From: a virus
Length of the DNA stretch: 64,000 nucleotides
Virus record (IMG/VR): IMGVR_UViG_3300049139_000233
Location: 28,596 to 92,595 of that record
Strand: one strand, 5' to 3'
How positions within the stretch are numbered: the stretch's first letter is position 1; each line of letters opens with the position of its first letter. Below are positions 1,892 to 47,628 of the stretch, one piece after another. The notes below the pieces were generated by a model, which made no database searches, was not told the origin of the DNA, and saw nothing but the letters and a program-made list of their open reading frames with translations. Made by a program: the position numbers and the translations under genes.

Positions 1892-3733
1892 TCACTGTGC
1901 GGGGGCACGGCCGGTCACCGCCCTCGGCCGCAGAGACGTGGAGATCATGGCGGTGGTGTCGGCGTAGGGGCTGCGGCCGTCGATGACCAGCCGGCCGAAG
2001 GCGTCCAGGTGGCACAGGTACGTGCCGCTGCTGCCCGGCCGGACCGACGGCGCCGCCGTGGCGACCGCGTGCGTGAACGGGCACGAGTACTCGTGCTCAC
2101 CGCAGATGCCCGGGTGGAGCAGGTCCCACCGGCCGGCCGCGCCGACGCGCAGCATGTGCTGCGTGCGGGCCTGCTGCACGAGACGCTGAGCCCGCTCGGC
2201 CGTCGCCTGCTGCGCCGGCGGGCCCGTCTCGTCCTGCGTCGGCGGCGGTTCGTCGCCCCGGGCCGGCCGCGCCGGTGCGGCCTCCTCGGACGACTGCTCG
2301 CCTCCGGGCGGCGGAGTGTTGCCCTGCTGCACGGCCTCGGCGGTGCCAGGGTCCTGCGGGGAGACGGGGACGATCTGCGGGACGTCCTCGCCGATGAGCT
2401 GTGCGAGGGCGGACGCGGCGCCCGACGGCAGGGTGTGGATGATGACCTTGAGAGCCTGCTCTTTCAGGTCGTCGTCCGTCGGCTTGTCCGCCTCGCTGAA
2501 CCCCAGCTCCCGGCGGTACGCCTCGCCGGATATCTCCAGCCGGTCGTACGCCAGCGTCGCGTTGCCGCTCCGGTCCGGCCGCAGGGCCAGCTCGGACATG
2601 TCGTACCAGACGACCCAGGCGGAGGGGTCCTCGCCGGACGCGTCCAGCCGGGGCTGGAGGTAGCCGCGTGTGAGGGCGTCGCAGATCAGCTCGACGGTGG
2701 GCGCGATGTGCGTCTTCAGCGCGCCCTCTTCCAACTGCCAGGCAGACCAGTGGTTGACGTCGCCCATGCCCAGCAGCACTTCGGCGGGCATGTCCAACTT
2801 GGTGGCCAGACGCTTGATCGCGCTGTCGCGCTTCTCGATGATCTTCTCATCGATCTTCAGGGTGAAGTCGACGTGCTTGACCTTGTCCAGCGCATCGGCC
2901 GGGCCGACCAGCGGAATCGGCACGACGGCGGACGCGGTGCCCGGGTTCTGGATCGCGGTGGCCGCCACCTCGATCCACTCCGCCATCAGCGGGTTGGGCT
3001 CGTCGGCGAACTCGTCGCGGACCGGGAACGACAGCTCATCGGGGAGCAGCACCAGGCCCGCCGACGCGAGCCGTGACAGGTACTCGGACGTGATCTTCCG
3101 GTTGACCAGCTCCAGCTCCCGCATGATCTCCCGGGCGCTGCGGGCCGGGGAGTCTGCCATGTGGTAGAAGCGGTCGTGCGGTCGCCAGATACGCACCACG
3201 TGGTGGTCGTCGGCCAGCTCCCGCCAGTCCTGGCCGGTGGTGACGCTGTCCTCGTCCATCACCTGGTACCGGCCGGACTGGACGCGGATCTCGTCCACGG
3301 AGCGAACCTGCCAGCGCTCCGTTTTCCCCACGGTCTCGCCGACCAGGTAGCCCTCACCGGGCAGGGAGAGCTGAACGGCGATGCGTTTCATGAGCTGCGC
3401 CTGGCCGGCGACGCCGCCGCCAAGGCGCATCATCAGCTCGGCGGCCGTTCCGGTCGACACGATCTCGGGCTCGTCAGAGTCCGGGGTGATGCGTCCGGCG
3501 CGCAGGCGCACCCGGCTGAGCATGTTGCTGAACCACCACACACCGTAGTTGAACTCGCCCAGGGTCTCGTGGAACTGCCAGACCTCGTCCTGCCACTTCT
3601 CGGTGCGCCGCAGGAACTTGGTTTCGGGGCCGCGCGGCTCAGATGCAGCAGCGGTCAGGGCCTCGGGCTCGACGGCGGGCAGGGGCGCGGGCGCGTGGAC
3701 ACCTCGCCCCCGGAAAACGTCGTACCACGGCAC
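1892..3733 (-). CDS. portal protein (613 aa) with a Cys/His-containing C-terminal extension
   Basis: GTG start at 3733 preceded by GGGGAGG-N6. Size and position (upstream of MuF/protease) fit portal, as do core segments FHETLGEFNYGVWWFSNMLSRVRLRAGR and DVNHWSAWQLEEGALKTHIAPTVELI. A Pro/Glu-rich linker leads to the tail ICGEHEYSCPFTH...YLCHLDAFGRLVIDG. Confidence 0.8.
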   Translation of the reverse strand: MPWYDVFRGRGVHAPAPLPAVEPEALTAAASEPRGPETKFLRRTEKWQDEVWQFHETLGEFNYGVWWFSNMLSRVRLRAGRITPDSDEPEIVSTGTAAELMMRLGGGVAGQAQLMKRIAVQLSLPGEGYLVGETVGKTERWQVRSVDEIRVQSGRYQVMDEDSVTTGQDWRELADDHHVVRIWRPHDRFYHMADSPARSAREIMRELELVNRKITSEYLSRLASAGLVLLPDELSFPVRDEFADEPNPLMAEWIEVAATAIQNPGTASAVVPIPLVGPADALDKVKHVDFTLKIDEKIIEKRDSAIKRLATKLDMPAEVLLGMGDVNHWSAWQLEEGALKTHIAPTVELICDALTRGYLQPRLDASGEDPSAWVVWYDMSELALRPDRSGNATLAYDRLEISGEAYRRELGFSEADKPTDDDLKEQALKVIIHTLPSGAASALAQLIGEDVPQIVPVSPQDPGTAEAVQQGNTPPPGGEQSSEEAAPARPARGDEPPPTQDETGPPAQQATAERAQRLVQQARTQHMLRVGAAGRWDLLHPGICGEHEYSCPFTHAVATAAPSVRPGSSGTYLCHLDAFGRLVIDGRSPYADTTAMISTSLRPRAVTGRAPAQ

Positions 3734-3793: not shown

Positions 3794-4525
3794 TTACGGA
3801 CGCCCTGGGCGGTACTGCTTGCCCGGCCCCCGCCGGCGGTTGTCGCGCTGCTCCTGCAACTCTCCGAAGGTCGCCCTGCCTTGGAGCCGGCGCAGGTGGC
3901 GGATGTTGTTCGCCGGGATGCCGACCCTCGGCGGGCCGTAGACGGCCAACAGGTCGGACTCCTCCTGCGAGGCGTAACCGGCCGCAGCGATGGCGTCCTC
4001 ATCGGGGAAGACGTCTGCGTGCCGGTCCTGATCGCGGTCGATGAGGTGGTCCTGCGTGCCGCCCAGGGAGTAGCACCACCTGAAGTTCCCTGGCGGGTCC
4101 GGTTCCACGCGCTCACGGAACAGGGCCACTTCCTTGGTGTACGCGTAGAAGGCGGTCGCGGGGGTGGCGCGGATGATCCGCAGCCAGGCGTCCAGGTACT
4201 CCGGGCTCAGGAAGTCGCCGCTGTCGTGGATGCGGACGTGGCGGTCCCGGTAGCGCGGGTGGGTCAGCTCCTCCGCCATCCGCCGTTCCCAGCCGGGCAG
4301 GTCATCGAGGATCATCGCGAGGTTGCTTTCGTGCGCGGCGAGGACGTTCGGGAAGCGGTAGGTCCCTGACCTGGCGTAACAGAGTTTCGCGCAGGAGCCT
4401 GCCGACGGGCAGGTGTTGTACGTCCGGCCGTCGGGGAGCCGGCCGGCCCACGCCGGCAGACTCCAGTTGAAGATGCCTTCGCGGCGCAGCTCGCTGTTCT
4501 GGCGCAGCAACCAGTCCCGGGACAC
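3794..4525 (-). CDS. conserved phage protein with Cys cluster (GP88-like, function unknown)
   Basis: Track ORF is 3794..4624. I prefer the GTG start at 4525 (AGGAGG-N5). The motifs FNWSLPAW...TCPSAGSCAKLCYA...IHDSGDF resemble the phage 'gene product 88' family from memory; this is unverified. Confidence 0.5.
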   Translation of the reverse strand: MSRDWLLRQNSELRREGIFNWSLPAWAGRLPDGRTYNTCPSAGSCAKLCYARSGTYRFPNVLAAHESNLAMILDDLPGWERRMAEELTHPRYRDRHVRIHDSGDFLSPEYLDAWLRIIRATPATAFYAYTKEVALFRERVEPDPPGNFRWCYSLGGTQDHLIDRDQDRHADVFPDEDAIAAAGYASQEESDLLAVYGPPRVGIPANNIRHLRRLQGRATFGELQEQRDNRRRGPGKQYRPGRP

Positions 4526-4672
4526 GCTGCCTCCTGCTGCCGTTCGCACGGGAGTCCCGCCGACCACCACAGCGACGGGACTCCCGCACCCCTGTGCACC
4601 CAGACCCGAGGAAGTCGGGGTCAACGGGCGGCACCATACGCGTGACGGGCGATATCACCTACTCGCACAGGA

Positions 4673-4998: not shown

Positions 4999-5040
4999 GA
5001 TGACTTAATTAAACCATAGTTCTCGTACCTGGACAACCCC
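4999..5040 (-). promoter_or_regulatory. P-box promoter/operator
   Basis: Minus strand reads GGGGTTGTCC-N12-TATGGTTTAATTAAGTCATC, 47 nt upstream of ATG 4952. Confidence 0.6.
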
Positions 5041-5050
5041 GGACACAACG

Positions 5051-5100
5051 AAGCCCCGGGACTGGATGTCCCGGGGCTCACGCGGCGCGGCGGTCAGGCG
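5051..5100. repeat. 50-bp direct repeat, copy 2
   Basis: AAGCCCCGGGACTGGATGTCCCGGGGCTCACGCGGCGCGGCGGTCAGGCG. Confidence 0.8.
5052..5078 (-). terminator. hairpin terminator
   Basis: The same 27-nt hairpin, downstream of the ATP-grasp stop at 5094. Confidence 0.6.
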
Positions 5101-6101
5101 TCTGCACCCCCTCGCTGCCACGCAGCCCCGGATGATGCGCGGTGGCCACCACCAGGGACGTAGACGTGGGTCGCGAGAGCGGTCTGCACGAGGTGGTCGG
5201 AGATGGCCCGCGCGATGACCATGCCGGTGGCGGCCTCCACGAACCCCCACTGGCCGGCCGGGTTCGCCTCCAGGAACCACCACGTGCCGTCCCGGTCGAC
5301 CGCGAAGTCCAGGGCCGCGTACTCCAGGTGCAGCTCGCGCATCAACCGCATGACCTTGTGGGCCAGCGGCTGGCTGAGCCCCACGGCCTCGAACCTCAGA
5401 CCGTCCTCGGGCACGGCCCGCCAGTCGAGCGCGTTGCCCGCAGTGATCCGGCACGGGAACATCCGGTCGCCGACCACGGTCAGCCGGATGTCGTACGCCT
5501 TGTCCACCGGCTGCTGGAAGTAGCACATGGACTGGCGCACGCTGTCGGCGCCTTCCTTGATCTCCCCGGCGGTCACCATCCGCGCCTGGACGAACCGGTC
5601 GGGGTGGGCCGTGAGCGTCTTGCACACGACCCGTCCGCCCTGCTCGCGGGCGAACTCGGCGGCCTGGGCCGGGTCGTTGGTGTACAGCGCCGGCGGGGTG
5701 CGGAAGCCGAGCGATGCGGCCAGCCGCAACTGCCGGGGCCCCGGCCGGGCCTGGAGAGCCCGGACGGGGTGGTTGACCCAGAGCACGTTGTCGAGGCCGT
5801 ACAAGAAGTCGTCCAGGATGACCCGGGACTCCTGCTGCTCCCACGTGCCGGGCGGCTCCGGGTGCCACCAGAACACCGACACGACCGACTGGGAGAGCGT
5901 GGTGCGGTGCTCGTCCTCAACCCGGAACCGCAGCGGTTCCCCGTCCGAAAGGCCCGTCATCCGCAGGACCCCCGGACGTGCGAGGTCTGCGGGGTCGATG
6001 CGGTGCACGACGACCTCGCGCTCCTGGATCTGCCGTATCACCAGGTCGGCACCGAGGTCGTCGGGCGCGGTGACCACGAGCACAGTCGGCGGGAGTGGCA
6101 T
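5094..6101 (-). CDS. ATP-grasp RiPP maturase (microviridin MdnB/MdnC-type, graspetide synthetase)
   Basis: The N-terminal segment VLVVTAPDDLGADLVIRQIQEREVVVHRIDPADL...VSVFWWH fits a leader-binding pre-ATP-grasp domain. Also present are LWVNHP...RQLRLAASLGFRTPPALYTNDP...VVCKTL and LDFAVDRDGTWWFLEANPAGQWGF. The start overlaps the stop of the upstream small ORF as ATGA. Confidence 0.8.
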   Translation of the reverse strand: MPLPPTVLVVTAPDDLGADLVIRQIQEREVVVHRIDPADLARPGVLRMTGLSDGEPLRFRVEDEHRTTLSQSVVSVFWWHPEPPGTWEQQESRVILDDFLYGLDNVLWVNHPVRALQARPGPRQLRLAASLGFRTPPALYTNDPAQAAEFAREQGGRVVCKTLTAHPDRFVQARMVTAGEIKEGADSVRQSMCYFQQPVDKAYDIRLTVVGDRMFPCRITAGNALDWRAVPEDGLRFEAVGLSQPLAHKVMRLMRELHLEYAALDFAVDRDGTWWFLEANPAGQWGFVEAATGMVIARAISDHLVQTALATHVYVPGGGHRASSGAAWQRGGADA

Positions 6102-6358
6102 CAGTCGTCGTCCTTCTTCAGTCCGGTGGCGTTGTGGGTCATGGTCGGGCCGACCAGCATGTACGAGGTCGAGAAATCGTCGTCCTTGCGGAACCCCTGG
6201 TGGTTGTGCGTGTGCGTGGTGGCCCGGATGTCGGCGACGTCCACCACGGCGTCACCGGACGAGGTGACGTTGAGCTGGCGGAGCGGGTCGTAGGTGAACG
6301 CAGGCGTCCGGTCGGCGGGCGGCGCGGGGGTCTCGGCGAGAAGCGCGAAGGCAGTCAT
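6101..6358 (-). CDS. putative graspetide precursor peptide (85 aa)
   Basis: Internal ATG at 6358 in track ORF 6101..6442. Leader: MTAFALLAETPAPP...AFTYDPLRQLNV. The C-terminal core is rich in Thr/Ser/Lys and Asp: HQGFRKDDDFSTSYMLVGPTMTHNATGLKKDDD. It is translationally coupled (ATGA) to the ATP-grasp gene. Confidence 0.6.
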   Translation of the reverse strand: MTAFALLAETPAPPADRTPAFTYDPLRQLNVTSSGDAVVDVADIRATTHTHNHQGFRKDDDFSTSYMLVGPTMTHNATGLKKDDD

Positions 6359-6450
6359 GAAGTAACCCTTCGAGTGGGGCCGTTCGGGCACGGCCCGTTC
6401 CTGTGTTCCGTGTTCCGTGCGCGTCGCCGGGCGGGTCGACAATCCCGGCG

Positions 6451-6494
6451 ATCATGGATTAATTAAACCATGGTTGTGTGATGCACGCAACCCC
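6451..6494 (-). promoter_or_regulatory. P-box promoter/operator of the graspetide cassette
   Basis: Minus strand reads GGGGTTGCGT-N12-CATGGTTTAATTAATCCATGAT. Confidence 0.6.
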
Positions 6495-6554: not shown

Positions 6555-7835
6555 TCACAGCCGCGCGGCCACCTGCTCGCGCAGCTCGGCGGCGGCCGGC
6601 GAGTCGGGGACCGACGGCAGCCGTGCAGCCACCGTGGCCAGGCCGTCGGAGATCTTCGTGGACTGAACGCCGGCGGAGCACTCCAGGAAGTCGGACCACG
6701 TCGCCAGCGCCTCGCCCGTGTTCCCCCGCTTGAGCTGCACGTGACCGAGGTCCGCCAGCACGATGGCGCGGGTACGCCGGCGGTCCAGACCGTGGATGTC
6801 CAGGGAGAGGTGCAGGTGCTCCTCGGCGGCGGCCAGGTCGCCGAGCCGGGCGAGGATCATCCCCGATTCGTGAGCCCACCGGCCGTGGCTGTAGTGGCTC
6901 GCCCACGACTGCCCCGGCGCGGCCGGTGCGTGCTCCATGGCGCCCTGCGCGGCGGACAGCATCCGAGCCGCCGTGGCACGGTCGCCGTCGGCGGCCTTCG
7001 CGCGGGCGAGCGTGTTGCGGTAGTAGGCCAGGGCCTTCGGGTTGTCCAGTCGCCGCCCGCGCTCCTCGCACGCCTCCGCCAGACGCACGGCGGTGGGGAC
7101 GTGGCCGAGGTCGATGGCCTGGTCCGCGAGACCGCGCAGCGCCGTCGCTGCCAGCTCGTTCTCCCCGGCCTCGGTGGCCAACCGCACGCTGTGCACGAGG
7201 TAGCGCTGGCTCAGCCCCACACTGCCCTCGTCCCGGGCCATCCACCCGATGAGGTGCACCAGTTCCGCCGTCGCCGCGAACAACTCGCGGCCGACCTTCT
7301 CGGTGTACTTCCCGTCCAGCCAGCGGCGAACGTCCTCGGTCAGGTAGCGCACGGCGAGGTGCCGCGCGTGCCCGCCGCCCAGCTCCGACGCCGCGTCGCC
7401 CAGGGTGCCGGTCATCGTGCGCACGGCGGAGACCTCGCCCATGCCGACGGCCACCGGCCCCGGGCGCGCCACGCGCCGGGTGACCGCGTCGGTGTCCGGC
7501 AGGTCGAGCGCTGCGAGCCCGGCGGCGGCCGACGCGGTCAGGAAAGTGCGGCGGTCCACGTCGTCTCCCCCAAGGGTCATCACAGAGGTCACGGTGTCGT
7601 CCGGGGCCGGGCTGTCTCCGCCCCGTGAGAGGTCCAGGCCCAGGGCCTGCTCGATGTACGGCAGCCATTCCACCGGCACGCGCCGGCCGGTCTCCCACCG
7701 GTACACCTGCTGACGGTCGCAGAACCCCCGGCTGCCCCAACGCAGTTCCGATAACTGGTCCGCGAGGGCGGCCTGGCTGCACCGTGGCCGCCGGGCCTCT
7801 CGGGCGGCGCGGATGCGTTCGCCGATTGTCGACAT
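6555..7835 (-). CDS. XRE-family HTH transcriptional regulator with TPR-like C-terminal domain (candidate phage repressor)
   Basis: N-terminal HTH: IGERIRAAREARRPRCSQAALADQLSEL...VYRWETGRRVP. A long helical repeat region follows (LGDLAAAEEHLHLSLDI..., LKRGNTGEALATW). ATG at 7835 follows AGACCGAGGAAACGAC. Confidence 0.8.
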   Translation of the reverse strand: MSTIGERIRAAREARRPRCSQAALADQLSELRWGSRGFCDRQQVYRWETGRRVPVEWLPYIEQALGLDLSRGGDSPAPDDTVTSVMTLGGDDVDRRTFLTASAAAGLAALDLPDTDAVTRRVARPGPVAVGMGEVSAVRTMTGTLGDAASELGGGHARHLAVRYLTEDVRRWLDGKYTEKVGRELFAATAELVHLIGWMARDEGSVGLSQRYLVHSVRLATEAGENELAATALRGLADQAIDLGHVPTAVRLAEACEERGRRLDNPKALAYYRNTLARAKAADGDRATAARMLSAAQGAMEHAPAAPGQSWASHYSHGRWAHESGMILARLGDLAAAEEHLHLSLDIHGLDRRRTRAIVLADLGHVQLKRGNTGEALATWSDFLECSAGVQSTKISDGLATVAARLPSVPDSPAAAELREQVAARL

Positions 7836-9344: not shown

Positions 9345-10427
9345 GTGACCACCACGATCACGACCACCGGCGCCGGCAGTCCCCTCCTCGCCTCCGCGAT
9401 GCACGACCACCTCGCCTCCCTGCGCGAGCGGCTTGGCGTGGTCCGGCCGCGCGACCGCCGCACCCGCCGGCTCAGCCCGCCGGTGTACCGGCTGGACCTG
9501 CTGCACGAGCTGGTGGAGCGCGAGACGTTCGAGCACGTCGTCACCTGGCTGCGGTCGCGCCGCTCCGACGGCACCGCCCGGGAGTACGCGGATGACGTCC
9601 GGCACTGGGCCCTGGCCGGGCGGGAGTTGTGCGGCACCGAGCCGTGGTACCTCGGCTCCATCACCCCGGACGTCATTCCGGTGTGGCGCGGATGGGCGAC
9701 GGAGGATCTGGGGCTGCGCGGCCGGCGGGTCAACCGGCTCTGCTCCTCTCTCACCTCGCTGATCGAATGGGTGAAGTACCAGACCCGCCAGGAGCTGATC
9801 CACCCCATCACCCGGTACGACCGGTTCAAGGTCGACCCGGACGACGAGTCGTCCATGACCCCGATCCTGGAAGTCGCCGAGCTGCAAGCCGTGCTGAACG
9901 CGTGCGACACGGCCCGGCAGGCGTTCGCGGTCTCCCTGATCTACACCCTGGCAGGCCGCGTCTCGGAGTGCTGCGACGCCGGCGCGGATGACCTGTCCTC
10001 GGAGTCGGGGACGTGCGTGCTCACCTTGCGGCGCAAGGGCGGCAAGACGGTGCCGTTCCCGCTGCCGGCGGAGCTGTGCGAGCTGGGCGCGGCGGCCTGG
10101 CGGGGCAGCACGAGCACGGCGCTCCTGCTCGATGACGACGGCCGGCCGATGGACCGGCACGCGGTGGACCGGCTGCTCAACCGCCTCGGCCGGACGGCCG
10201 GTGTCCTGCCCGGCCGGGACCTCACCCCTCACGTCCTGCGCGCGAGCAAGCTGACCCACATGTACGACGAGGGCACGGCGCCGGACGACATCCGCCGGTT
10301 CGCCGACCACGCGAACGTCTCCACGACCATGCGGTACATCCGGCGCCGCACGAACGCGGGTCTGCGCGCGAAGCACACGCAAGCGGCCGTGAAGGTGTAC
10401 GAGGGCCTGGTGAACCGGTTCCTGTGA
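9345..10427 (+). CDS. int: tyrosine recombinase / integrase
   Basis: C-terminal catalytic region: ...LTPHVLRASKLTHMYDEGTAPDDIRRFADHANVSTTMRYIRRR (R...HxxR...Y pattern). The N-terminal SAM-like domain contains ...VIPVWRGW.... The GTG start at 9345 is uncertain; ATG 9399 is an alternative. Confidence 0.85.
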   Translation: MTTTITTTGAGSPLLASAMHDHLASLRERLGVVRPRDRRTRRLSPPVYRLDLLHELVERETFEHVVTWLRSRRSDGTAREYADDVRHWALAGRELCGTEPWYLGSITPDVIPVWRGWATEDLGLRGRRVNRLCSSLTSLIEWVKYQTRQELIHPITRYDRFKVDPDDESSMTPILEVAELQAVLNACDTARQAFAVSLIYTLAGRVSECCDAGADDLSSESGTCVLTLRRKGGKTVPFPLPAELCELGAAAWRGSTSTALLLDDDGRPMDRHAVDRLLNRLGRTAGVLPGRDLTPHVLRASKLTHMYDEGTAPDDIRRFADHANVSTTMRYIRRRTNAGLRAKHTQAAVKVYEGLVNRFL

Positions 10428-17131: not shown

Positions 17132-17947
17132 TCAGACGGTGGCCGGCTCGGGCAGCAGGCCGTGCTCGCGCGCCTTGCGCAGGGCGGCGGGCAGGCGTGA
17201 GCCCTTCTCCATCCACGCCACATCCAGGCGCCGGTACGCCTCGGACAGCCGGGTGGAGCAGGTGCCCCGGGCGAGGCCGAGGCGCTGCGCCGTCTCGGCG
17301 AGGGTGGCTCCGGACTCCATCTCCAGCAGCACCCTGGCCTGCGTGTCCGACAGCCGGACCTCGCTCTGCGGGCTGCGGGGGCGCGGCGGCGGCTCGCTGC
17401 GCAGGAGGCCGCGCATCCGGGCCTCACGCAGGGCCACCTCGCGGCGGACCGCAGGCGGGAGCTGGGAGACACCGAGTGCGGCGTAGGCCTCGGCGGTGAG
17501 GGTCTTCACGGTCCGGTGGCTGACGTTCCACGCCTGGCACACCTGCGCCTGTGTGCGCCCCGCGTCGAACGCGCGCAAGAGGCGTACGTGCGGCTCCGTG
17601 AGCCGGACCGGGCGGCGGGTGGCGGCGTCGGCTTCCATGCGTTCTCGGTTGCCTCGCTTGCAGGCGGCGCACACGGGCTCGTCTCGTTTGATGTGGCGCC
17701 GGTAGGCGGCGAGGAGCCCGCAGTCCTCGTACGGGCCGATGTGCCCGGCCAGCAGGCCGTCCCGGACGGCCTGCGCGGCGGTGGTCACACCCATCACCTC
17801 ATAGATCCGGGCGCAGGTTTTCCGTATGACGCTGGGCGCCCGGTTCGTCTTGCGGGCGATGTCCGCACAGGTGTGCCCGGTGGACAGCAGCCACAGGATG
17901 CGTCGTTGACCTTCCGTCAGGATGACGACCGGTGACGCGGAGTCCAT
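17132..17947 (-). CDS. DNA-binding protein with three tandem LuxR/GerE-type HTH modules
   Basis: Three repeats: LTEGQRRILWLLSTGHTCADIARKTNRAPSVIRKTCARIYEVMGV; LTEPHVRLLRAFDAGRTQAQVCQAWNVSHRTVKTLTAEAYAALGV; LSDTQARVLLEMESGATLAETAQRLGLARGTCSTRLSEAYRRLDV. ATG at 17947 follows GGAAAGGGG. Confidence 0.7.
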   Translation of the reverse strand: MDSASPVVILTEGQRRILWLLSTGHTCADIARKTNRAPSVIRKTCARIYEVMGVTTAAQAVRDGLLAGHIGPYEDCGLLAAYRRHIKRDEPVCAACKRGNRERMEADAATRRPVRLTEPHVRLLRAFDAGRTQAQVCQAWNVSHRTVKTLTAEAYAALGVSQLPPAVRREVALREARMRGLLRSEPPPRPRSPQSEVRLSDTQARVLLEMESGATLAETAQRLGLARGTCSTRLSEAYRRLDVAWMEKGSRLPAALRKAREHGLLPEPATV

Positions 17948-18059
17948 GCGGACCACCCCTTTCCGTAGATTGGAGTGGACCCCGGGTCACGTCCACTGAC
18001 CCGGGGTCCTGTCGACCGGCACCGGCCCGGGGTCTCTCCTCCGGGTCCACCGGGACACT

Positions 18060-18100
18060 CATTTAGTTAAATCCCCGATCGGTGGTTTTGTTAAACCATC
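18060..18100 (-). promoter_or_regulatory. two degenerate P-box cores
   Basis: Minus strand reads GATGGTTTAACAAAACC-N10-GGGGATTTAACTAAATG, upstream of the triple-LuxR gene. Confidence 0.35.
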
Positions 18101-19181
18101 ACAGGCCCAGCCACAGCGGATGGTCCAGGGACCAGCGCACCGTGCGCTCCAGCGACTCCTCCAGCGGAACCGGAGGCTTCCAGCCGAGGGCGGCGAGCCG
18201 CGAGCCGTCCAGGGCGTAGCGCAGGTCGTGGCCGGGCCGCGAGGAGTGGAAGGACACCGGCTCGATGAGGTCGTCCACGATGGCCGGGTCCAGGCCCATC
18301 ACGCGGCCGACCAGGTGCACCAGCTCCACGTTGTCGACTTCGCGCTCACCGACGATGTGGTACCGCTCGGGCCGGGTGAACGCCCCGTCGCTGTACCGCG
18401 CCGGGCCGGCGGCAATGCGGTACGTCTCCCCGCTCAGCGTCTGCACGTCGGGCGACCCCTCGGTGTACCGGCGCGTCAGGTGCAGCCAGGCGTCGGCGAG
18501 GTTGCGCGCGTGCAGGTAGAACCGGGAGCCCGGGGTGCCGTCGGGAGCGGTGTGCACCGTGACCGGCCGGCGATCGCGCAGCCGGCTGACGATCATGGGG
18601 AGGAACTTCTCCCGGTCCTGCATCTCCCCGATGATGTTCATGGTGTTGGTGATGACGACCGGCACGTCGTAGGTCCGCCAGTAGCTGACCGCGATGGCCT
18701 CTTGGGCGGCCTTGGACGCGCTGTACGGGTTGGACGGCACGACCGGCTCCCACTCCGTGTGCCGGTGGTCGCCGTAGGCCGGGCCGTACACCTCGTCGGT
18801 GGACATCTGGAGGAACACCCTCGGCCGGACGGACCGCGCGACCTCCAGGATGTTGAGCATCAGGGCGACGTTGTTCTGAACGAACGCTGCCGGGTCGGAT
18901 ATCGACCGGTCGACGTGCGACTCGGAGGCGACGTTCATGATGACGTCGCAGCCCTCGAACTGGTGCAGGGTCAGCGGGTCGGCCGGCGCCCGCATGTCCC
19001 AGTGGACGACGTGCACGCGTTCGGACCAGTCGGTGTCGCACACCGCCGACGCGATGCGCGCGGGGAGCCCCTTGTGCCGGAAGGACACCGGGCAGGTGAT
19101 CTCCCAGTCCGTGTTCGCCAGCAGGTGGCGCAGGACGTGGCTACCGACGAAACCCGACGCGCCCGTGAGCAGGACGTGCAT
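18099..19181 (-). CDS. NDP-sugar 4,6-dehydratase (RmlB-like extended SDR)
   Basis: Motifs: MHVLLTGASGFVGSH (GxxGxxG), MSTDEVYG, PYSASKAAQE (YxxxK). Internal ATG at 19181 follows GACCACGGAACGAGGAG. Confidence 0.8.
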   Translation of the reverse strand: MHVLLTGASGFVGSHVLRHLLANTDWEITCPVSFRHKGLPARIASAVCDTDWSERVHVVHWDMRAPADPLTLHQFEGCDVIMNVASESHVDRSISDPAAFVQNNVALMLNILEVARSVRPRVFLQMSTDEVYGPAYGDHRHTEWEPVVPSNPYSASKAAQEAIAVSYWRTYDVPVVITNTMNIIGEMQDREKFLPMIVSRLRDRRPVTVHTAPDGTPGSRFYLHARNLADAWLHLTRRYTEGSPDVQTLSGETYRIAAGPARYSDGAFTRPERYHIVGEREVDNVELVHLVGRVMGLDPAIVDDLIEPVSFHSSRPGHDLRYALDGSRLAALGWKPPVPLEESLERTVRWSLDHPLWLGL

Positions 19182-19252
19182 GGCCACTCCTCGTTCCGTG
19201 GTCTGTGAGCGTGGCCGGATGGTAGCCAGGGACTCCGAAATCACCGAACGTG

Positions 19253-20533: not shown

Positions 20534-21136
20534 TCACCAGCCCCGCCGGGCGCCGCGCGACGGAGTGCCGATGAGATCGAACAGGTCCGCGCGCTGCTGC
20601 GGGTCGTCCAGGAACACCCCGGTGTACGAAGCGGTGACCATCACCGCCCCCGGCTTCCGCGCACCCCGGTGGGCCAGGCACCCGTGCTCCGAGCGGATCA
20701 CGCAGGCGGAGCCGAGGGTGTCCAGATGCTTGTCGAGTGCGTCGGTGACCTGCTTGGTGAGCTGTTCCTGCGTCTGGAGGCGCCGGGCGTAGACGTCCAG
20801 GACCCGGGGCAGCTTGGACAGACCTGCCACCCGCGCGCCCGGGGTGGGCAGGTAGGCGATGTCCGCCGTGCCCGTGAACGGCAGCAGGTGGTGCTCACAG
20901 ACGGACGTGAACTCCACCCCGGTCACCGCGATGGGCTGCCCGCCGCGCTCCACGTCGAAAGTGCGCTCCAGCAGCTCGCCGGCGTCCAGGGCGTAGCCGG
21001 CCGTGAACTCCTCCAGTGCCCGGAGCATACGGGCCGGCGTTCCGGCCAGGGCCTCGGAGTCGGGGTCCAGGCCCCGCCCGGCGAACCAGGTCCGCAGGCC
21101 GCTGACGAACAGGTTGTGCGCGGTCGTCTCGCTCAT
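20534..21136 (-). CDS. folE: GTP cyclohydrolase I
   Basis: Motifs: FTSVCEHHLLPF, IAYLP, LSKLPRV, QERLT-like QEQLT, CLAHRG. Confidence 0.9.
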   Translation of the reverse strand: MSETTAHNLFVSGLRTWFAGRGLDPDSEALAGTPARMLRALEEFTAGYALDAGELLERTFDVERGGQPIAVTGVEFTSVCEHHLLPFTGTADIAYLPTPGARVAGLSKLPRVLDVYARRLQTQEQLTKQVTDALDKHLDTLGSACVIRSEHGCLAHRGARKPGAVMVTASYTGVFLDDPQQRADLFDLIGTPSRGARRGW

Positions 21137-21849
21137 CGGCCTCTCTCATCTCCCCACGCGTGGACGTGCAGGCGCGTGGTCACGTTGAATCCGGCTCGGA
21201 TCGCGGGCTCCGCGATCTCGGACAGGTGGCGGGACAAGGTGGCGGAGTCCGTGCCCTCGGGCATGACCCACACCCGGCGGGCGGGGATCCCGTGTGCGGC
21301 CGTCAGCTCCACCGTTCCGGCGACGTCGCCGGCGTCGCGGCACACGACCTTGAACGCCGCCTTCCCCGTGGCGGCCAGGGCCTTGAGCGCCGTGCCGTTG
21401 ACGCGCCGGTCCCCGGCGACCCCGGAGTGCGCCAGCTTGGGCGAGACGACGAACCGGGTCAGCAGCCGAGCCGTCTCCTCGCTCGGTTCCACCGTGCCGT
21501 TCGTCTCCGCCTCCACCCGGATCCCGGCGCCGGTCAGGCCGCGCAGAACAGCTCCCCAGCCCGGGTAGCCCTGCTGGAGCAGGGGTTCGCCCCCGGAGAC
21601 GATGACGAACCGGACTCCGGTGGCCAGCAGCCGGTCCACGATCATGTCCGCGTCCATGCGCCGCAGCTCAGCGCGCAGGTCGTGCCGCGAGGCGTCCCAC
21701 GTCCACGGGGTGTCACACCACGAGCAAGTGAGGTTGCAGCCGCCGAGCCGCAGGAACGCACACCGCTGGCCCAGCGTCGGGCCCTCGCCGGACACCGTCG
21801 GCCCGAAGATCTCCGAGACGACCAGGGACGGCCGCGCCGGCGCGGTCAC
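21133..21849 (-). CDS. queE: 7-carboxy-7-deazaguanine synthase (radical SAM)
   Basis: Motifs: IFGPTVSGEGPTLGQRCAFLRLGGCNLTCSWCDTPWTW. Coupled to the neighbouring genes by 4-nt overlaps. Confidence 0.9.
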   Translation of the reverse strand: MTAPARPSLVVSEIFGPTVSGEGPTLGQRCAFLRLGGCNLTCSWCDTPWTWDASRHDLRAELRRMDADMIVDRLLATGVRFVIVSGGEPLLQQGYPGWGAVLRGLTGAGIRVEAETNGTVEPSEETARLLTRFVVSPKLAHSGVAGDRRVNGTALKALAATGKAAFKVVCRDAGDVAGTVELTAAHGIPARRVWVMPEGTDSATLSRHLSEIAEPAIRAGFNVTTRLHVHAWGDERGR

Positions 21850-22283
21850 GGTGACTCACCCGTCCAAGACGCCTCGTTGACGGCCGTCTCCCGCACGTCT
21901 ACGTTCACCACGCGGGCGCCGTTGGCGTGGTCCACTGTGGCGAGGATCCCCGAGGCGACGGACGCCAGCAGCTCTGCTGTCGCCTCCACCGTCGGCCACG
22001 AGTCCTCGAACTCGAACACCTTGGAGCCCATCGAGCACAGCACGGGCAGCAGCGGGTCGGCAGTACCGAGCATCGCGCCGTGGTCCAGGTGGTGATCGAT
22101 CCACTCGCGAACGGCGCGCTTGAACGCGCCGAACTCCACGACGATGCCGTCCGCGTTCAGGGCCGGGGCCGCCACGGTGATCTCCACCCACCAGGAGTGG
22201 CCGTGCAGGTTGAAGCACTTGCCGCCCAGCTCGGGCAGCCGGTGGGCGGTCTCGAAGTTGTGCCGGACCGTGACGCTGTTCAT
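21846..22283 (-). CDS. queD: 6-carboxy-5,6,7,8-tetrahydropterin synthase
   Basis: Internal ATG at 22283 (ATGA overlap with queC). Sequence: NFETAHRLPELGGKCFNLHGHSWWVEI. Confidence 0.9.
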   Translation of the reverse strand: MNSVTVRHNFETAHRLPELGGKCFNLHGHSWWVEITVAAPALNADGIVVEFGAFKRAVREWIDHHLDHGAMLGTADPLLPVLCSMGSKVFEFEDSWPTVEATAELLASVASGILATVDHANGARVVNVDVRETAVNEASWTGESP

Positions 22284-22954
22284 GCCGCGTACTCCGTGGG
22301 GTCGGTGAGCCCGGCGTCGGCAAACGCCTCCTTGCGCTCGGTGCACGTCCCGCAGGTGCCGCAGTGCACGGCGCCACCCTTGTAGCAGGACCAGGACATG
22401 CCCACCGGGGCGCCGATGCGCTCCGCGTAGGCGGCTATCTCCGTCTTCGTCATGCCGACGAACGGAGTGACGATCTGTGGGACGTGCAGACCCTTGAGCG
22501 CGACAGCCGCCAGCTCCCGCAGCGCGTCCACGAACTCGGGGCGGCAGTCCGGGTACACGGCGCGGTCGCCGGCGTGAATACCGAGGCCGATCAGCTCCGC
22601 GCCCCGGGCCGAGGCGACCCCCAGCGCGATGGACGCCATGATGGCGTTGCGGTTGGGCACTACGGTGGACTTCATCGACTCGTCCTCGTAGTGACCGTCC
22701 GGGACGTCCACGGTCTCGTCGGTGAGGGAAGAGCCGGGCAGCAGCGGGGCGAGGGAGGACAGGTCCACCGTGCAATGCTCCGCGCCGAGGTAGCCGGCGA
22801 TCCCGGCCGCCGCCTCCAGCTCCCGGGCTCGGTGCCGCTGGCCGTAGTTGAAGGACAGCAGCAGCAGGTCGTACTCCTTGCGCACGTAGTGTGCCGCCAG
22901 AGTCGTTGAGTCCATGCCCCCGGAGAACGAGAGCACGGCGAGCGGTTTGGTCAC
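22280..22954 (-). CDS. queC: 7-cyano-7-deazaguanine (preQ0) synthase
   Basis: PP-loop LSFSGGMDSTTL and C-terminal Zn cluster CYKGGAVHCGTCGTCTERKEAF. Confidence 0.9.
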   Translation of the reverse strand: MTKPLAVLSFSGGMDSTTLAAHYVRKEYDLLLLSFNYGQRHRARELEAAAGIAGYLGAEHCTVDLSSLAPLLPGSSLTDETVDVPDGHYEDESMKSTVVPNRNAIMASIALGVASARGAELIGLGIHAGDRAVYPDCRPEFVDALRELAAVALKGLHVPQIVTPFVGMTKTEIAAYAERIGAPVGMSWSCYKGGAVHCGTCGTCTERKEAFADAGLTDPTEYAA

Positions 22955-23859: not shown

Positions 23860-24785
23860 ACCACACCCCCTGGGGCGTTGTCCCGCTCGATCCTCAACGC
23901 ACGTGCAGCCTGCTTGAACCGGGCCGGGTTGGCGTCCGCGAGGAAGAGGACCGTCCCCGGGTGCTCCCAGCCGAGGGGCGCGGGTACCTGGTGGCGTTTC
24001 GCCAGCCACTGCCCAAGACGGTAGAAGGCCACGGCCGGAGCCCCGCGCATCATCTGCGTCTCGACTGCGTGCTGCTTTGGAGTCCTGTGGGGGGACTGGG
24101 CGAAGCCCGGCCGGCCGACCAGAGCCGGGTCCGCCCCGTGAGAGCGCATCAGCGTCGCGTACCTGCGCGCCTGCGCCGGGTGGGAGACCTGCACCTGCAC
24201 GATCCGGGCCTTGCGCTCGTCCCACAAAGGGAGCTGGCCGAAGCGTGAGCCCGCGCCCCAGGCGGAGGAGTCGACACTGTAGAACGGCAACGCGGCGAGG
24301 GTGGCAACCTTGGTTTGTCCGAACCCGTGGAACACGGTCCCTTGCTCCGCTCCGATGCGGAAGCACCGGATGAGCCACCGCAACACCTCATCGGAGTACT
24401 TGGCGTACGGCACCATGCCGCCAAGCGCGAGATACGGGTACGCCTTGCACAGCCTCTCCAGCTCGGACCAGGGCGAACCGACGTGGAAGGTGGGCAGGAC
24501 GGTAAGGCCGGCCGACAGTAGAGCCTCAGTGTTGCGGTGCGTGGCGTCTGGGTCGCCGATGACGTCCAGGGTCGCCGCCGTGGTGATGACCTGGGACCAC
24601 TCCTCCAGCCAGGCCGCGTAGTCCTTCAGGTGCACAGTGGCGCCGACGTTGGCGACGGAGAAGGCGCCCGAGTCGGCGAAGACCTCCACCGGTCCGCCGT
24701 AGAGCGCACGCAGCTCCATCACCAGCTCCGCCAGATCGACGTTGCGGAAGAAGGCGTAGGAGAGCAGGCAGCGCAGCGGGGTCAC
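23856..24785 (-). CDS. dpdA: DpdA-like DNA/tRNA-guanine transglycosylase paralog 2
   Basis: GTG at 24785 overlaps the ParB-like stop (GTGA). Motifs: VFADSGAFS, YLALGGMVPY, FHGFGQT, PFYSVDSS. Confidence 0.75.
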   Translation of the reverse strand: MTPLRCLLSYAFFRNVDLAELVMELRALYGGPVEVFADSGAFSVANVGATVHLKDYAAWLEEWSQVITTAATLDVIGDPDATHRNTEALLSAGLTVLPTFHVGSPWSELERLCKAYPYLALGGMVPYAKYSDEVLRWLIRCFRIGAEQGTVFHGFGQTKVATLAALPFYSVDSSAWGAGSRFGQLPLWDERKARIVQVQVSHPAQARRYATLMRSHGADPALVGRPGFAQSPHRTPKQHAVETQMMRGAPAVAFYRLGQWLAKRHQVPAPLGWEHPGTVLFLADANPARFKQAARALRIERDNAPGGVV

Positions 24786-25468
24786 TCGGCCGCCTTCACC
24801 CGCTGCACCAGGAACATGAAGCGCACCGAGTCGTCGGACGGGTCCTCGCAGTCCTTCGTCAGCTCCATGAAGTCGTCCCGGACGGCCGGCGGAACGCGCA
24901 CCCGGATGACGGGCCACAGGTCGGTCTCCTGGGGCTCGCCGTACTCCTCGGCGAGGTCGTCCAAAGACGGAGGGGGTTCGACGGCCGGAGGCAGTGAGGT
25001 GAACAGGTCCGCGTCGGACGGCTCGTACCCGGTGCCCACCAGGTCGTCCTCCAGCGAGGCGAGCAGGGCCGCCAGGGACGCGTCGTCGTAGGTGCCGTCG
25101 TCGGCGGCCTTGTTGTCCACCAGGTTGATGCGCGTGGCGGTCGCGTCGTCGCACTCGATGAGGTGCGCGAGCGCCGTCGGGTCGTCGGCGTCCACGTCCA
25201 CGCAGAGCTGGCACGGCCGGTCGTTGGACAGCTCCCAGTCCTGGCACGCCTCGCGGCCGGACTCCTCGTGCCGCAGCAGCGCGAGGTACGTGTGGTTCCC
25301 GGCGAGGATGCTCAGGGTCTCGCCGTGCCGGCGCACCGTGAGCGGCTTGTACTGGCCGTTCGCGCGCAGGGAGTCGAGGATCACGTCCACGTTGCCCCGG
25401 CGTGCGTTGCCCTCGAACGGCGTGAGGTCTTCCAGGGGGACCCGCTCGGTCCCGATGGTCGTGGTCAT
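24782..25468 (-). CDS. ParB/Srx-like N-terminal-domain protein (possible DpdB-like accessory factor)
   Basis: ATG at 25468 follows GGAGGA-N7. ParB box: LEDLTPFEGNARRGNVDVILDSLRANGQYKPLTVRRHGETLSILAGNHTYLAL. Confidence 0.7.
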   Translation of the reverse strand: MTTTIGTERVPLEDLTPFEGNARRGNVDVILDSLRANGQYKPLTVRRHGETLSILAGNHTYLALLRHEESGREACQDWELSNDRPCQLCVDVDADDPTALAHLIECDDATATRINLVDNKAADDGTYDDASLAALLASLEDDLVGTGYEPSDADLFTSLPPAVEPPPSLDDLAEEYGEPQETDLWPVIRVRVPPAVRDDFMELTKDCEDPSDDSVRFMFLVQRVKAAE

Positions 25469-25543
25469 CGTTGCGTCCTCCACCTGGTCGACGGACGCGG
25501 CGATGTTAAGACCGCACAGGGTCATGATCGTTCCGGAGCACGG

Positions 25544-33772: not shown

Positions 33773-33828
33773 CGGTGTTTCCTCGATTCCTTGGTCCGTG
33801 CTTCCTTGGTCTGCTGGGGCGTGGGCAC

Positions 33829-34311
33829 TTACGTTCTCCTCCCCTTCCGGCCGGCCGGGCGCCGACTGTCGAACCGGGCCGCTGAAGCGGCGTCCCACGC
33901 CGGCCGGAACTCGGGGCCGGTCCACATGCGGTGGACGTCGGCGACCATGCCGCTCGGGTGCCAGACGCGGACGGTGTGATCCCGCCCGCAGACGTCACCC
34001 TGGCGGTGCAGGCCGCGCACCGTGAACAGCATCAGACCGGTCTTGGTGACGAGACCCTTCCAGCGTGGGTCGTCAAAGGTATCCGCGAGCGGCTTTATCT
34101 CCATCCACGCCTGGTCAGCGCCCTGATGGGGCCTGATGCGGAAGTCCGGCAGGTACCCGCGCGAGCCGACGCGGTACGCCTGCGGCTCGTACTCCCACGG
34201 GATGCCCGCGTGCTCGAAGAACACGATCCACCGGGCCTCCAGCCGGGAGCGTGTGACGACCCCGTGCACGGCGGTGGGTATCGGCCGGACGACCTGGTAC
34301 AGGCTGTTCAT
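33829..34311 (-). CDS. PD-(D/E)xK nuclease-like protein
   Basis: Internal ATG at 34311 (ATGA overlap). SRLEARWIVFFEHAGIPWEYEPQAY...GYLPDFRI...EIKP fits a restriction-endonuclease-like core. Confidence 0.5.
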   Translation of the reverse strand: MNSLYQVVRPIPTAVHGVVTRSRLEARWIVFFEHAGIPWEYEPQAYRVGSRGYLPDFRIRPHQGADQAWMEIKPLADTFDDPRWKGLVTKTGLMLFTVRGLHRQGDVCGRDHTVRVWHPSGMVADVHRMWTGPEFRPAWDAASAARFDSRRPAGRKGRRT

Positions 34312-47038: not shown

Positions 47039-47614
47039 ATGAGCCGTATCGGTCAGAACCACCCGGACAACCCCTTCAGCGCGCGGGGCCGCGTCAACGG
47101 ACAGTCGGACGAACAGCTCCGCAGCCGGGGTCTGGACTCCCAGGGGCACCCGGCGCCGGCGGAGGACAAGGTGGGCAAGAGCAGCAGGTCAAACGGGTTT
47201 TCCCGGCCCGGCGGCACGCGCGGCCAGAACATCGCCCAGCTCGCGCAGTCGATCGGCTCCATGGAGCTGGGCAACCAGGACGACCTGCACGCCTTCTGTG
47301 AGGCATACCGGGCGATCCTCAACTACCTCGCCGTGTCCGCCAAGATGGCGGAAGGCCAGCTCAAGGCCTCCGCGAGGGCCAACGCGAGGCAGGCCAAGGA
47401 CGGCTGGATGGGCCCCATGCAGGCCGCCAAACTGGCGAGCACGCTGCGCCAGGTCGGCAAGGACCTCGACCACATCGCCAACTCCTGCGTCGGCGGGGCC
47501 GCGAGCGCCGTCAAGGCGTGGCGGCGGTTCGAAGCACTGCTGGACGAGCTGGAGAACGACAACGGGCGGCCGAACCGCCCCGGGGGCCGCCGTGGCGGCT
47601 TCTCCGTGGTGTAA
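47039..47614 (+). CDS. hypothetical protein (191 aa)
   Basis: ATG follows AGGAACCAGGAACCAGGAAGAGG. Confidence 0.6.
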   Translation: MSRIGQNHPDNPFSARGRVNGQSDEQLRSRGLDSQGHPAPAEDKVGKSSRSNGFSRPGGTRGQNIAQLAQSIGSMELGNQDDLHAFCEAYRAILNYLAVSAKMAEGQLKASARANARQAKDGWMGPMQAAKLASTLRQVGKDLDHIANSCVGGAASAVKAWRRFEALLDELENDNGRPNRPGGRRGGFSVV

Positions 47615-47628
47615 GGGCGGTGGACGGC

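Follow-up and report, generated by a model that had tools for sequence, protein, structure and literature searches.

A stretch of 64,000 nucleotides from the IMG/VR virus record IMGVR_UViG_3300049139_000233 (positions 28,596 to 92,595 of that record; the whole stretch is called the window here) very probably harbours a minimal two-gene cassette for a graspetide, i.e., a ribosomally synthesised peptide that is modified after translation (RiPP), with omega-ester or omega-amide links. The cassette appears to be accessory cargo of a temperate Streptomyces phage of ~93 kb, apparently a linear plasmid-prophage. Graspetides are a large class of RiPPs, and the characterised ones are protease inhibitors. 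An earlier note on the same DNA had proposed a graspetide cassette from the letters alone, and the computational analysis reported here supports this interpretation. The cassette lies on the minus strand, with the precursor gene first and the gene of an ATP-grasp enzyme behind it:

6101..6358, minus strand: precursor peptide gene, an open reading frame of 85 amino acids from its ATG
6230..6358, minus strand: leader region, about residues 1-43, with (P/A)FALL at residues 3-7 and FTYDxxRQLNVT..G at residues 21-35
6176..6217, minus strand: core repeat 1, T48-H-T50-H-N-H-Q-G55-F-R-K58-D59-D60-D61
6104..6145, minus strand: core repeat 2, T72-M-T74-H-N-A-T-G79-L-K81-K82-D83-D84-D85, at the C-terminus
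5094..6101, minus strand: predicted ATP-grasp peptide macrocyclase gene (graspetide synthetase), an open reading frame of 335 amino acids

Both open reading frames (ORFs) are as described in the earlier note, and all strings of residues quoted there are present; the small one reads MTAFALL...FTYDPLRQLNV...RKDDDFSTSYMLVGPTMTHNATGLKKDDD. The junction had been given as an ATGA overlap and has to be corrected: it reads GAC-TGA-TG, with the stop codon TGA at 6103..6101 and the start codon ATG at 6101..6099, which is a TGATG overlap of a single nucleotide.

That the two ORFs are real is far beyond chance. This follows from their GC content at third codon positions (0.89 for the 85-residue and 0.92 for the 335-residue ORF, at a GC content of 70.7% for the window), from homologs of both enzyme and peptide, from a conserved ribosome-binding site and from the ratio of nonsynonymous to synonymous substitutions (dN/dS) in the peptide. 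The latter ranges pairwise from 0.25 to 0.8 and indicates purifying selection, although the values are only moderately low. The ribosome-binding site, GAAGGG in the window, lies 7 nt 5' of the ATG at 6358; a GAAGGA-type site 7-8 nt before the ATG is kept in the window and in the related loci for which upstream sequence was printed (L001, L002, L003, L005 and L006). An upstream TTG at 6442 would extend the small ORF to 113 residues, yet the ATG is favoured because of the conserved site at matching distance.

The ATP-grasp enzyme

The best match of the enzyme among the NCBIfam models is TIGR04187, the family of SAV_5884-type ATP-grasp maturases (E 1.2e-76), where residues 6-304 of the protein align to positions 1-311 of the 312 in the model. 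Other models score lower: MvdC (E 3e-40, 138 bits against a cutoff of 425), MvdD (E 2e-25, 90 against 475), RimK (E 1.6e-11, 44 against 143) and LysX (29 bits against 276); the PHROG family “ribosomal protein S6 glutaminyl transferase” is a weak match. A sequence search of the PDB returned PruB, MdnB, AMdnB, MdnC, CdnC and PsnB only, all of them graspetide synthetases, with PruB of S. coelicolor (9BOU) as the best match (E 3e-35).

The predicted fold agrees with the sequence searches. The AlphaFold2 (AF2) model of the enzyme, built on 97 homologs, has a predicted local distance difference test score (pLDDT) of 91. When it was compared with the PDB by Foldseek, ranks 1-32 were all occupied by graspetide synthetases, with target-normalised template modelling (TM) scores of 0.77-0.88 over ~306-332 aligned columns that include the N-terminal domain; leader-bound structures of MdnC, CdnC and PsnB are among them. 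The folds of RimK, LysX and ArgX appear from rank 33 on, at 13-19% identity and with a TM of ~0.74 for RimK and LysX; the E value of the fold match is 1e-14 for RimK/LysX (16% identity) versus 1e-28 for the best graspetide synthetase (32% identity). Across the 97 homologs K161, D265 and N280 are invariant and E278 nearly so, and these are residue types typical of the nucleotide and Mg sites of ATP-grasp enzymes.

By family, PDB sequence and fold the protein is thus placed among the RiPP macrocyclases with a pre-ATP-grasp domain, and not with RimK, GshB or Ddl, a grouping that the earlier note had considered as the alternative; the putative N-terminal pre-domain is visible in the structural model only. 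The clade is a divergent sister lineage of TIGR04187. The label “microviridin-type” of the earlier note does not hold in the strict sense, since a single ligase is present and a microviridin core is lacking; the enzyme falls into the TIGR04187 branch of actinobacteria, with PruB as the closest structure.

The precursor peptide

The sole family matches of the peptide are TIGR04186 (E 3.8e-4) and PF14404, Strep_pep (E 6.9e-4). TIGR04186 is matched by 11 of the 19 members of the peptide family at E<=0.01, the best at 5e-6. In an alignment of 19 homologs the N-terminal half is conserved as (P/A)FALL, DRTP and (F/Y)xYDxxRQLNVT..G, with A5, L6, L7, D24, Q28, N30 and G35 invariant. Upon comparison by hhalign with canonical TIGR04186-type precursors from Streptomyces clusters the family matched with a probability of 96% (E 3.7e-9) over leader columns 3-43 only; the core does not align. 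Judged from these alignments, the leader is homologous to the canonical leaders, while the core has been exchanged for another. The leader motifs (P)FAL and YD..Q, cited in the earlier note, are indeed real in the canonical precursors and align to the phage family. The sequence RPFG has been proposed as the key recognition element in ThfA (PMC13003496), and the PF(A/G) motif of the present leader is its counterpart.

In the core, the unit T-x-T-H-N-x-x-G-x-K-K-D-D-D is duplicated in tandem (residues 48-61 and 72-85). In repeat 1, T50, H51, N52, G55, D59, D60 and D61 are invariant, and T48 and K58 occur in at least 90% of the sequences; in repeat 2, T74, H75, N76, K81, K82, D83, D84 and D85 are invariant. 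Apart from H-N and Gly, the invariant residues are those that could act as nucleophiles (Thr, Lys) or acyl donors (Asp). Relatives with one repeat, which exist beside those with two as in other multi-core graspetides, retain exactly the unit of repeat 2, as seen in Streptomyces sp. Tu6071 (...FGDSMTINSSGSKKDDD), in the clade at 46% identity (...GPTMTDSSGNGGTGPKKDDD) and in several metagenomic proteins. A small precursor with leader and Thr/Lys/Asp core, conserved beside its enzyme, is what one expects of a graspetide system. AF2 modelling of the peptide alone gave a leader at pLDDT 74-79, in which TYD/LNV forms a small hairpin, and a core disordered from residue 43; it contains no hints of rings, but only the split into an ordered and a disordered part.

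The family is small: an exhaustive profile search through 1.84 billion representative proteins yielded no more than 13 matches at E<=1e-3. From this search the long repeat proteins P0145, P0149 and P0150 were set aside; P0150 is repeat-rich and unrelated to the precursors.

Distribution and gene linkage

Homologs of the enzyme form a discrete group of 29 at 61-100% identity, followed by a gap to a single one at 46% and then by the canonical family at 33-42%; those of the peptide number 18, at 64-89%. As the earlier note had demanded of a true precursor, its homologs lie beside ATP-grasp genes: the pair is adjacent in each of the 12 loci read (L001-L012), and in most other relatives both share a contig. 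In every copy the two ORFs are unbroken, and the catalytic and core residues do not vary.

The genomic contexts are those of phages or integrated elements. S. africanus, which like Streptomyces sp. NRRL S-455 carries the element of ~93-96 kb, is syntenic with the window over terminase, RNase T-like exonuclease, integrase, regulator, precursor, ligase, GP88 and portal. Six viral contigs of IMG/VR (63-96 kb) carry close copies at 78-80% identity. A second phage backbone is seen in Streptomyces sp. GDS52, where the pair sits between the integrase and holin, amidase and tail genes. In this strain the cassette and its flanks are found twice, ~81 kb apart (L003 and L004), on a contig of 126,646 bp annotated as a “plasmid” (JBQQCR010000003.1), which suggests an assembly of a phage of ~81 kb, concatemeric or terminally redundant, instead of a true plasmid of 127 kb. 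The relative at 46% identity adjoins a serine recombinase and a small terminase.

Integrated elements that contain Lsr2 and DUF3987 genes have the chromosomal copies at their edge; in the integrated relatives the cassette is located at the end of the prophage and preceded by another upstream sequence. In two of the loci the precursor begins ~70-100 nt downstream of a tRNA-like sequence (L005, ~9560..9660; L006, 7568..7661). ARAGORN recognised a tRNA-Val of 94 nt in L006 and none in L005, though acceptor and T-arm sequences are visible there. These tRNA-like sequences probably mark the attachment-site junction, and the cassette would then be the outermost part of the prophage.

The regulator upstream of the cassette varies among the relatives and is of the XRE-TPR (TPR, tetratricopeptide repeat) type, of the GntR type or another. 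The XRE-TPR regulator of the window recurs with 89% identity in L007 and L012, there too ahead of the cassette. A fixed partnership between this regulator and the cassette is ruled out by the differing neighbours in other relatives.

Putative transcription signals

The following elements delimit the cassette:

6454..6494, minus strand: putative promoter module, found by repeat analysis, GGGG + -35-like TTGCGT (6490..6485), 17-nt spacer and TG-extended -10-like TTTAAT (6467..6462)
6359..6453, minus strand: putative 5' untranslated leader of ~95 nt, with the ribosome-binding site GAAGGG at 6371..6366
5051..5079, minus strand: terminator-like hairpin, a GC-rich stem of 12 pairs with a loop of 5 nt, then UUCGUUGUGU; 15 nt past the stop codon of the ATP-grasp gene
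19 intergenic sites of the palindrome described below, starting at 5000, 6454, 8833, 8977, 10794, 14437, 18082, 29121, 36837, 40861, 50274, 50842, 51718, 54133, 56675, 57693, 58681, 60077 and 63820

The earlier note had assigned to the pair a consensus promoter of its own. The module it referred to is real, yet it is not private: it is one of 19 copies, and a scan with the strict sigma-70 consensus TTGACA/TATAAT yields 0 sites for it. The -10-like element TTTAAT is embedded in an 18-bp palindrome, ATGGTTTAATTAATCCAT (6471..6454). The 13-mer ATGGTTTAATTAA, with <=2 mismatches, matches 27 times over both strands of the window, with 0 expected, and these matches collapse to 19 sites of the 18-bp palindrome ATGRNTTAATTAANYCAT, again with 0 expected. 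Nearly all of the 19 carry the -35-like element at equal spacing, and their aligned flanks disclose a conserved architecture, GGGGTTG(T/C)-N-ATGRTTTAATTAA, in which GGGGTTG(T/C) supplies a -35-like TTGNNN, a spacer of 17 nt follows and TG-N-TTTAAT forms an extended -10-like element. Many copies have a GC hairpin just upstream, and a ribosome-binding region, GACCAAGGAA..AGGAA, is conserved downstream. The module escapes the strict scanner as its -10 hexamer has a T in position 2.

From recurrence and placement we infer a putative promoter role. The element could act as a promoter throughout the phage, as the operator of a repressor, or as both, the operator idea being suggested by its palindromic nature; the conserved inverted repeats of phiC31 offer a comparison. 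That the module is read by a phage sigma factor was considered and rejected: the ORF at 17132..17956 has matches of the helix-turn-helix (HTH) or region-4-like kind only and lacks region 2.

A hairpin terminator had likewise been claimed. The stem of 12 GC-rich pairs at 5051..5079 is there, and the 66-nt stretch around it (5035..5100) folds with -40.3 kcal/mol (z -3.54), a stability reached by none of 200 shuffled sequences; it fails, though, the strict rule for the T-run, and the scan for intrinsic terminators gave 0 sites. Immediately beyond the hairpin the next promoter module (5000..5040) precedes a small ORF, GP88 and portal. Folding of the 5' untranslated region (6359..6453) revealed no significant RNA structure (z -0.5), and a search of the whole window against Rfam found no RNA family.

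The cassette is, hence, a bounded transcription unit that uses the phage's general type of promoter and not a private one. As its promoter is 1 of 19 phage-wide copies, a role in lysogenic conversion, as the earlier note had considered, is not implied; the sharing of its promoter type with 18 further transcription units of the phage speaks against a lysogenic-conversion gene of the classical, independently expressed kind.

The phage and the accessory slot

Family searches of the window proteins identified the neighbours of the cassette:

1892..3733, minus strand: portal gene
3794..4624, minus strand: GP88 gene
6555..7835, minus strand: gene of the XRE-TPR regulator, 426 residues
9345..10427, plus strand: tyrosine integrase gene

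The setting beside an XRE regulator and an integrase in a phage, as noted before, is confirmed by the annotation of the window, which encodes portal, large terminase, tyrosine integrase, primase-polymerase, helicase and exonucleases. Megablast of the region against the GenBank phages gave no match, and there is no close relative among them. The portal shows 72% identity with its counterpart in pS1D4-14.2 (L051, NZ_CP041606.1 45665-65476), a linear plasmid of 98.8 kb in a complete Streptomyces genome, which is syntenic with the window over integrase, XRE regulator, GP88, portal and major capsid protein. There, a PH-domain gene occupies the slot from regulator to GP88-portal instead of the cassette. 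This slot and the varying regulators identify the cassette as accessory cargo in a variable position between lysogeny or regulation genes and structural genes. With a promoter module and a terminator-like hairpin, a variable slot and absence from a close relative, it has the attributes of a moron-like accessory cassette. It comes without exporter or immunity gene, and a methyltransferase is also lacking; no protease or exporter gene adjoins it in the annotation of the window.

Relatives of the window occur as whole contigs of 92-96 kb in assemblies of Streptomyces isolates, and the window itself encodes a ParB-like protein (24782..25525, minus strand) and an FtsK/SpoIIIE-like protein (47518..49605, plus strand). 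The lineage has the appearance of a linear plasmid-prophage in which a tyrosine integrase is also retained.

The regulator ahead of the cassette consists of an XRE HTH, a segment that is hydrophobic or resembles a Tat (twin-arginine translocation) signal (residues 93-110) and TPR repeats. It may serve as a one-component sensor anchored in the membrane; homologs are found on many Streptomyces plasmids.

Proposed mechanism and alternatives

The following sequence of events is our proposal for the graspetide cassette. The phage-type promoter ~100 nt upstream would give rise to a bicistronic mRNA that ends at the GC hairpin, and the TGATG junction would couple the translation of precursor and enzyme. 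The N-terminal ~43 residues would serve as the leader that docks the precursor on the ATP-grasp enzyme, by analogy with ThfA and MdnA, and the disordered C-terminal part would present the two copies of T-x-T-H-N-x-x-G-x-K-K-D-D-D. As in MdnC, PsnB and ThfB, the enzyme would use ATP to convert side-chain carboxylates of Asp to acyl phosphates; attack by Thr hydroxyls would yield esters and, possibly, attack by Lys amines amides. Each repeat might thereby become a small hairpin-like macrocyclic unit, in the simplest case with T(i) and T(i+2) linked to D1 and D3 of the DDD triad, a pairing modelled on the equal-spacing rule in fuscimiditide and amycolimiditide (10.1101/2023.06.21.545981). With no protease or exporter encoded, the product may be trimmed by host proteases, or it may act intracellularly or after lysis; aspartimidylation is not expected because no methyltransferase is encoded. 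Our best guess for its function, again by analogy, is a protease inhibitor in the conflict between phage and host or between phages.

Several points weigh against the graspetide assignment. The TIGR04187 score of the enzyme, 257.9 bits, stays below the curated cutoff of 350, and the scores of the peptide (20.5 bits for TIGR04186, 20.1 bits for PF14404) are under the cutoff of 25 bits; the two families that the earlier note had predicted are, nevertheless, the best or only matches. The MvdD-like pre-ATP-grasp domain of Pfam, PF21068, has no match in the enzyme clade. NCBI/PGAP calls all members of the family “hypothetical protein”. The assignment of donors and acceptors and the topology of the rings are guesses, and a Lys directly adjoining the Asp triad would make an unusual lactam geometry.

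Three other explanations were weighed. The enzyme might be an alpha-carboxylate ligase of the RimK/LysX kind which extends or loads the acidic KKDDD terminus and makes no side-chain macrocycles. The small protein always ends with KKDDD, reminiscent of the acidic C-termini used by RimK (in S6) or LysX and ArgX (in LysW), and the weak RimK, LysX and PHROG matches together with the TM of ~0.74 for the RimK/LysX folds could be quoted in its favour. Yet RimK and LysX score 44 and 29 bits versus 258 for TIGR04187, the E values of the fold matches (1e-14 versus 1e-28) point the same way, and the motif also occurs internally (residues 48-61, followed by F62), where a free alpha-carboxylate is absent. 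Moreover, the leader is homologous to those of graspetide precursors, there are no partners from lysine or arginine biosynthesis nearby, and neither the best similarity nor a partner of the S6 or LysW type was found, all of which renders this idea extremely improbable. Hardly better are the prospects of the peptide, modified or not, being a signal of the RRNPP or arbitrium kind that is sensed by the HTH-TPR regulator (6555..7835) and steers the decision between lysis and lysogeny. The architecture of this regulator, with XRE HTH, Tat-like segment and C-terminal TPRs, follows the domain logic of RRNPP receptors, it adjoins the small peptide gene beside the integrase, and its 89% identical version precedes the cassette in L007 and L012. 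The neighbour, however, is not conserved (GntR in L002 and L008, a protein of 247 residues without known function in L003, HTH_31/DUF5753 in L001, L005 and L006), the related plasmid-prophage has the XRE regulator and lacks the peptide cassette, and signal peptide and exporter are absent. We also know of no graspetide that acts as a signal. We regard this role as highly unlikely.

The remaining explanation sees in the cassette a host-derived passenger, be it a functional graspetide system that has no phage-specific role or one in decay. Its nearest non-phage relatives are, at 35-46% identity, ordinary chromosomal and plasmid clusters of Streptomyces, a close phage relative does without it, and the dN/dS of the precursor is only moderately low. 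Such a passenger would, on the other hand, hardly be expected to form a discrete clade (61-100% identity, then a gap to 46%), to be found in a phage or integrated element in all six contexts read, to occur in at least three different genome backbones with all copies intact and the catalytic and core residues invariant, and to be wired in the window to the phage's own promoter module. This alternative is improbable, albeit somewhat less so than the other two. A graspetide cassette that serves as phage cargo accounts best for the findings.

Relation to known graspetide systems

The closest relatives in kind are the graspetides of actinobacteria with TIGR04186/TIGR04187 pairs (tgmA/tgmB), among them the Strep_pep type with two genes. 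The likeness lies in the enzyme branch, with its full-length alignment to TIGR04187, in the leader motifs PFAL and YD..Q.N of TIGR04186, and in the acidic C-terminus ending in DD(D), which canonical cores share with that of the window. A chromosomal locus (L048) even has the same two-gene layout with precursor and then ligase. PruB from S. coelicolor, the closest enzyme of solved structure, is 32% identical to the enzyme of the window, with a target-normalised TM of 0.87. The window core, however, is a duplicated TxTHNxxGxKKDDD, whereas a canonical one reads, e.g., TTTSTAGSKTHFDD; and, unlike the canonical systems, the pair scores below the cutoffs, has no PF21068 match and is carried by a phage behind a phage promoter module.

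Graspimiditides, i.e., fuscimiditide, amycolimiditide and albusimiditide (group 13 of Ramesh), resemble the window in an ATP-grasp enzyme of 35-39% identity, a related leader and the Streptomyces background, and in cores with Thr-rich donors followed by Asp-rich acceptors and predicted stem-loops. The repeats of the window are much shorter, while graspimiditides form one long stem-loop. They also employ an O-methyltransferase of the PIMT type. A tblastn search with the methyltransferase of L047, a canonical cluster of three genes, gave nothing better than E 0.49 in the window, and none was found in L001-L012; the same query finds a homolog in 20 other viral loci. With no methyltransferase in the window or its close relatives, the cassette is not a graspimiditide system and no aspartimide is expected.

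Plesiocin (PsnA2/PsnB) and thuringinin share with the window the minimal equipment of a precursor and a single ATP-grasp enzyme, and PsnB is a fold match. Common to both are also tandemly repeated core motifs, each of which is expected to yield a small hairpin-like bicyclic unit. The enzyme of the window is, however, only 19-20% identical to PsnB, leader and core motifs differ, and these systems are chromosomal (Myxococcota, Bacillus), in contrast to the phage-borne cassette.

With the microviridins (MdnA/MdnB/MdnC) the window has in common the ATP-grasp fold with pre-domain, MdnB and MdnC being strong structural matches, and the leader-guided logic. Microviridins require two ligases and have a PFFARFL leader and a TxKxPSDx(E/D)(D/E) core, while in the window there is one ligase, the core motif is absent, and neither the GNAT nor the ABC transporter of microviridin clusters is encoded. 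Single ligase, missing core and MvdC/MvdD scores below the cutoffs rule out a microviridin identity.

Mobile elements with RiPP cargo have been described. Prophages carry bacteriocin clusters of other RiPP classes (Dragos et al., 10.1101/2020.10.01.322628), and graspetide clusters reside on integrative and conjugative elements (ICEs) of Porphyromonas gingivalis, where such mobile carriage was called previously unrecognised (10.64898/2026.08.04.741601). Both are like the window in having RiPP accessory cargo near the integration module. The P. gingivalis systems are of the grasp-with-SPASM type with exporters; the window contains a minimal ATP-grasp cassette with no exporter.

Prior knowledge and significance

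The earlier note was not aware of a characterised phage-encoded graspetide. Full-text literature searches on graspetides and phages and on ATP-grasp RiPPs and prophages likewise revealed no description of one, and the supplements of Carter et al. 2026 contain no matches to accessions of the family. A homolog pair has, though, already been catalogued in the genome mining of graspetides. It belongs to Streptomyces sp. NRRL S-455 and is encoded on JOCT01000029.1, a contig of 95,726 bp that is itself a viral genome of IMG/VR. The supplements of Makarova et al. 2022 list this pair without comment: the enzyme in the “Actinobacterial branch”, on a long branch (0.89) and flagged as overlapping with the set of Lee et al. 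2020, and the peptide as the singleton precursor “cluster6377”; the main text never mentions phages (PMC8939145). The class of molecule is thus known and the family already predicted in bulk. The new points are its residence in phages, its wiring to a phage promoter and the association of a whole clade with phages.

The natural role of the abundant actinobacterial branch of graspetides has been stated to be unknown (10.1101/2023.06.21.545981). Conflicts between phage and host, or between phages, would provide a concrete and testable setting for their function. Graspetides would also join the short list of RiPP classes carried as phage cargo, and the duplicated core of 14 residues with its minimal enzyme is a compact candidate scaffold for peptide engineering. 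If, of course, the product is an ordinary peptide that is not exported and has no phenotype, we are left with one more predicted graspetide cluster.

Wider carriage by phages

It is tempting to go a step further and to consider graspetide cassettes as a recurrent, so far unrecognised weapon or tool of phages, which, in infection or lysogeny, would produce a macrocyclic peptide and direct it against a protease or another factor of the host or of rival phages. This generalisation is tentative and, in our estimate, rather doubtful; if true, it would for the first time give the large actinobacterial graspetide/graspimiditide family a biological rationale.

More distant relatives of the ATP-grasp enzyme are encoded on 34 further viral contigs of IMG/VR (L013-L046), many of them with recognisable precursors. 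In 20 of the 34 a methyltransferase of the PIMT type follows directly downstream, which makes them canonical graspimiditide clusters; one such three-gene cluster (L028, 3001..6923) lies ~1 kb from a portal gene of the SPP1 type. Several of the 34 clusters are located at contig ends and may be host flanks of predicted proviruses.

Two records of a GenBank-derived phage collection have such cassettes as well. The Leptospira phage vB_LalZ_80412-LE1 (KF114876.1, L049 2158..3439) contains an unannotated cassette of an ORF of 106 residues and an ATP-grasp gene named “RimK-like”. The ORF reaches 8 nt into the start of the ATP-grasp gene, and its annotation covers no more than the last 37 residues. 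With a TYD...GLNF leader and three repeats of TKT...DD(D/E) (TKTFTQRESDDEE, TKTDTIREVDDD and TKTEENKEQDE) it looks like a multi-core graspetide precursor. MT835913.1 (L050 604..2133), an unverified “Bacteriophage sp.” from human faeces, encodes an ATP-grasp protein that is 29% identical to that of the window; the unannotated ORF upstream displays a leader-like RYDPEVQLWV motif and five T-x-T...QEG-DD(E/D) repeats, the viral status of the record being unverified.

Other features of the window

A QueC homolog (21133..21849, minus strand), a radical-SAM gene of the QueE-like kind (22280..22954, minus strand) and a gene for a nucleotide-sugar epimerase or dehydratase (18099..19244, minus strand) are also encoded in the window, the QueC/QueE-like genes suggesting a 7-deazaguanine modification of the phage DNA. 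Finally, 29399..33925 on the minus strand is a single ORF of 1508 residues, which according to PHROG combines a primase/helicase-like part (residues 310-793) with a DNA-polymerase-like one (residues 872-1508).

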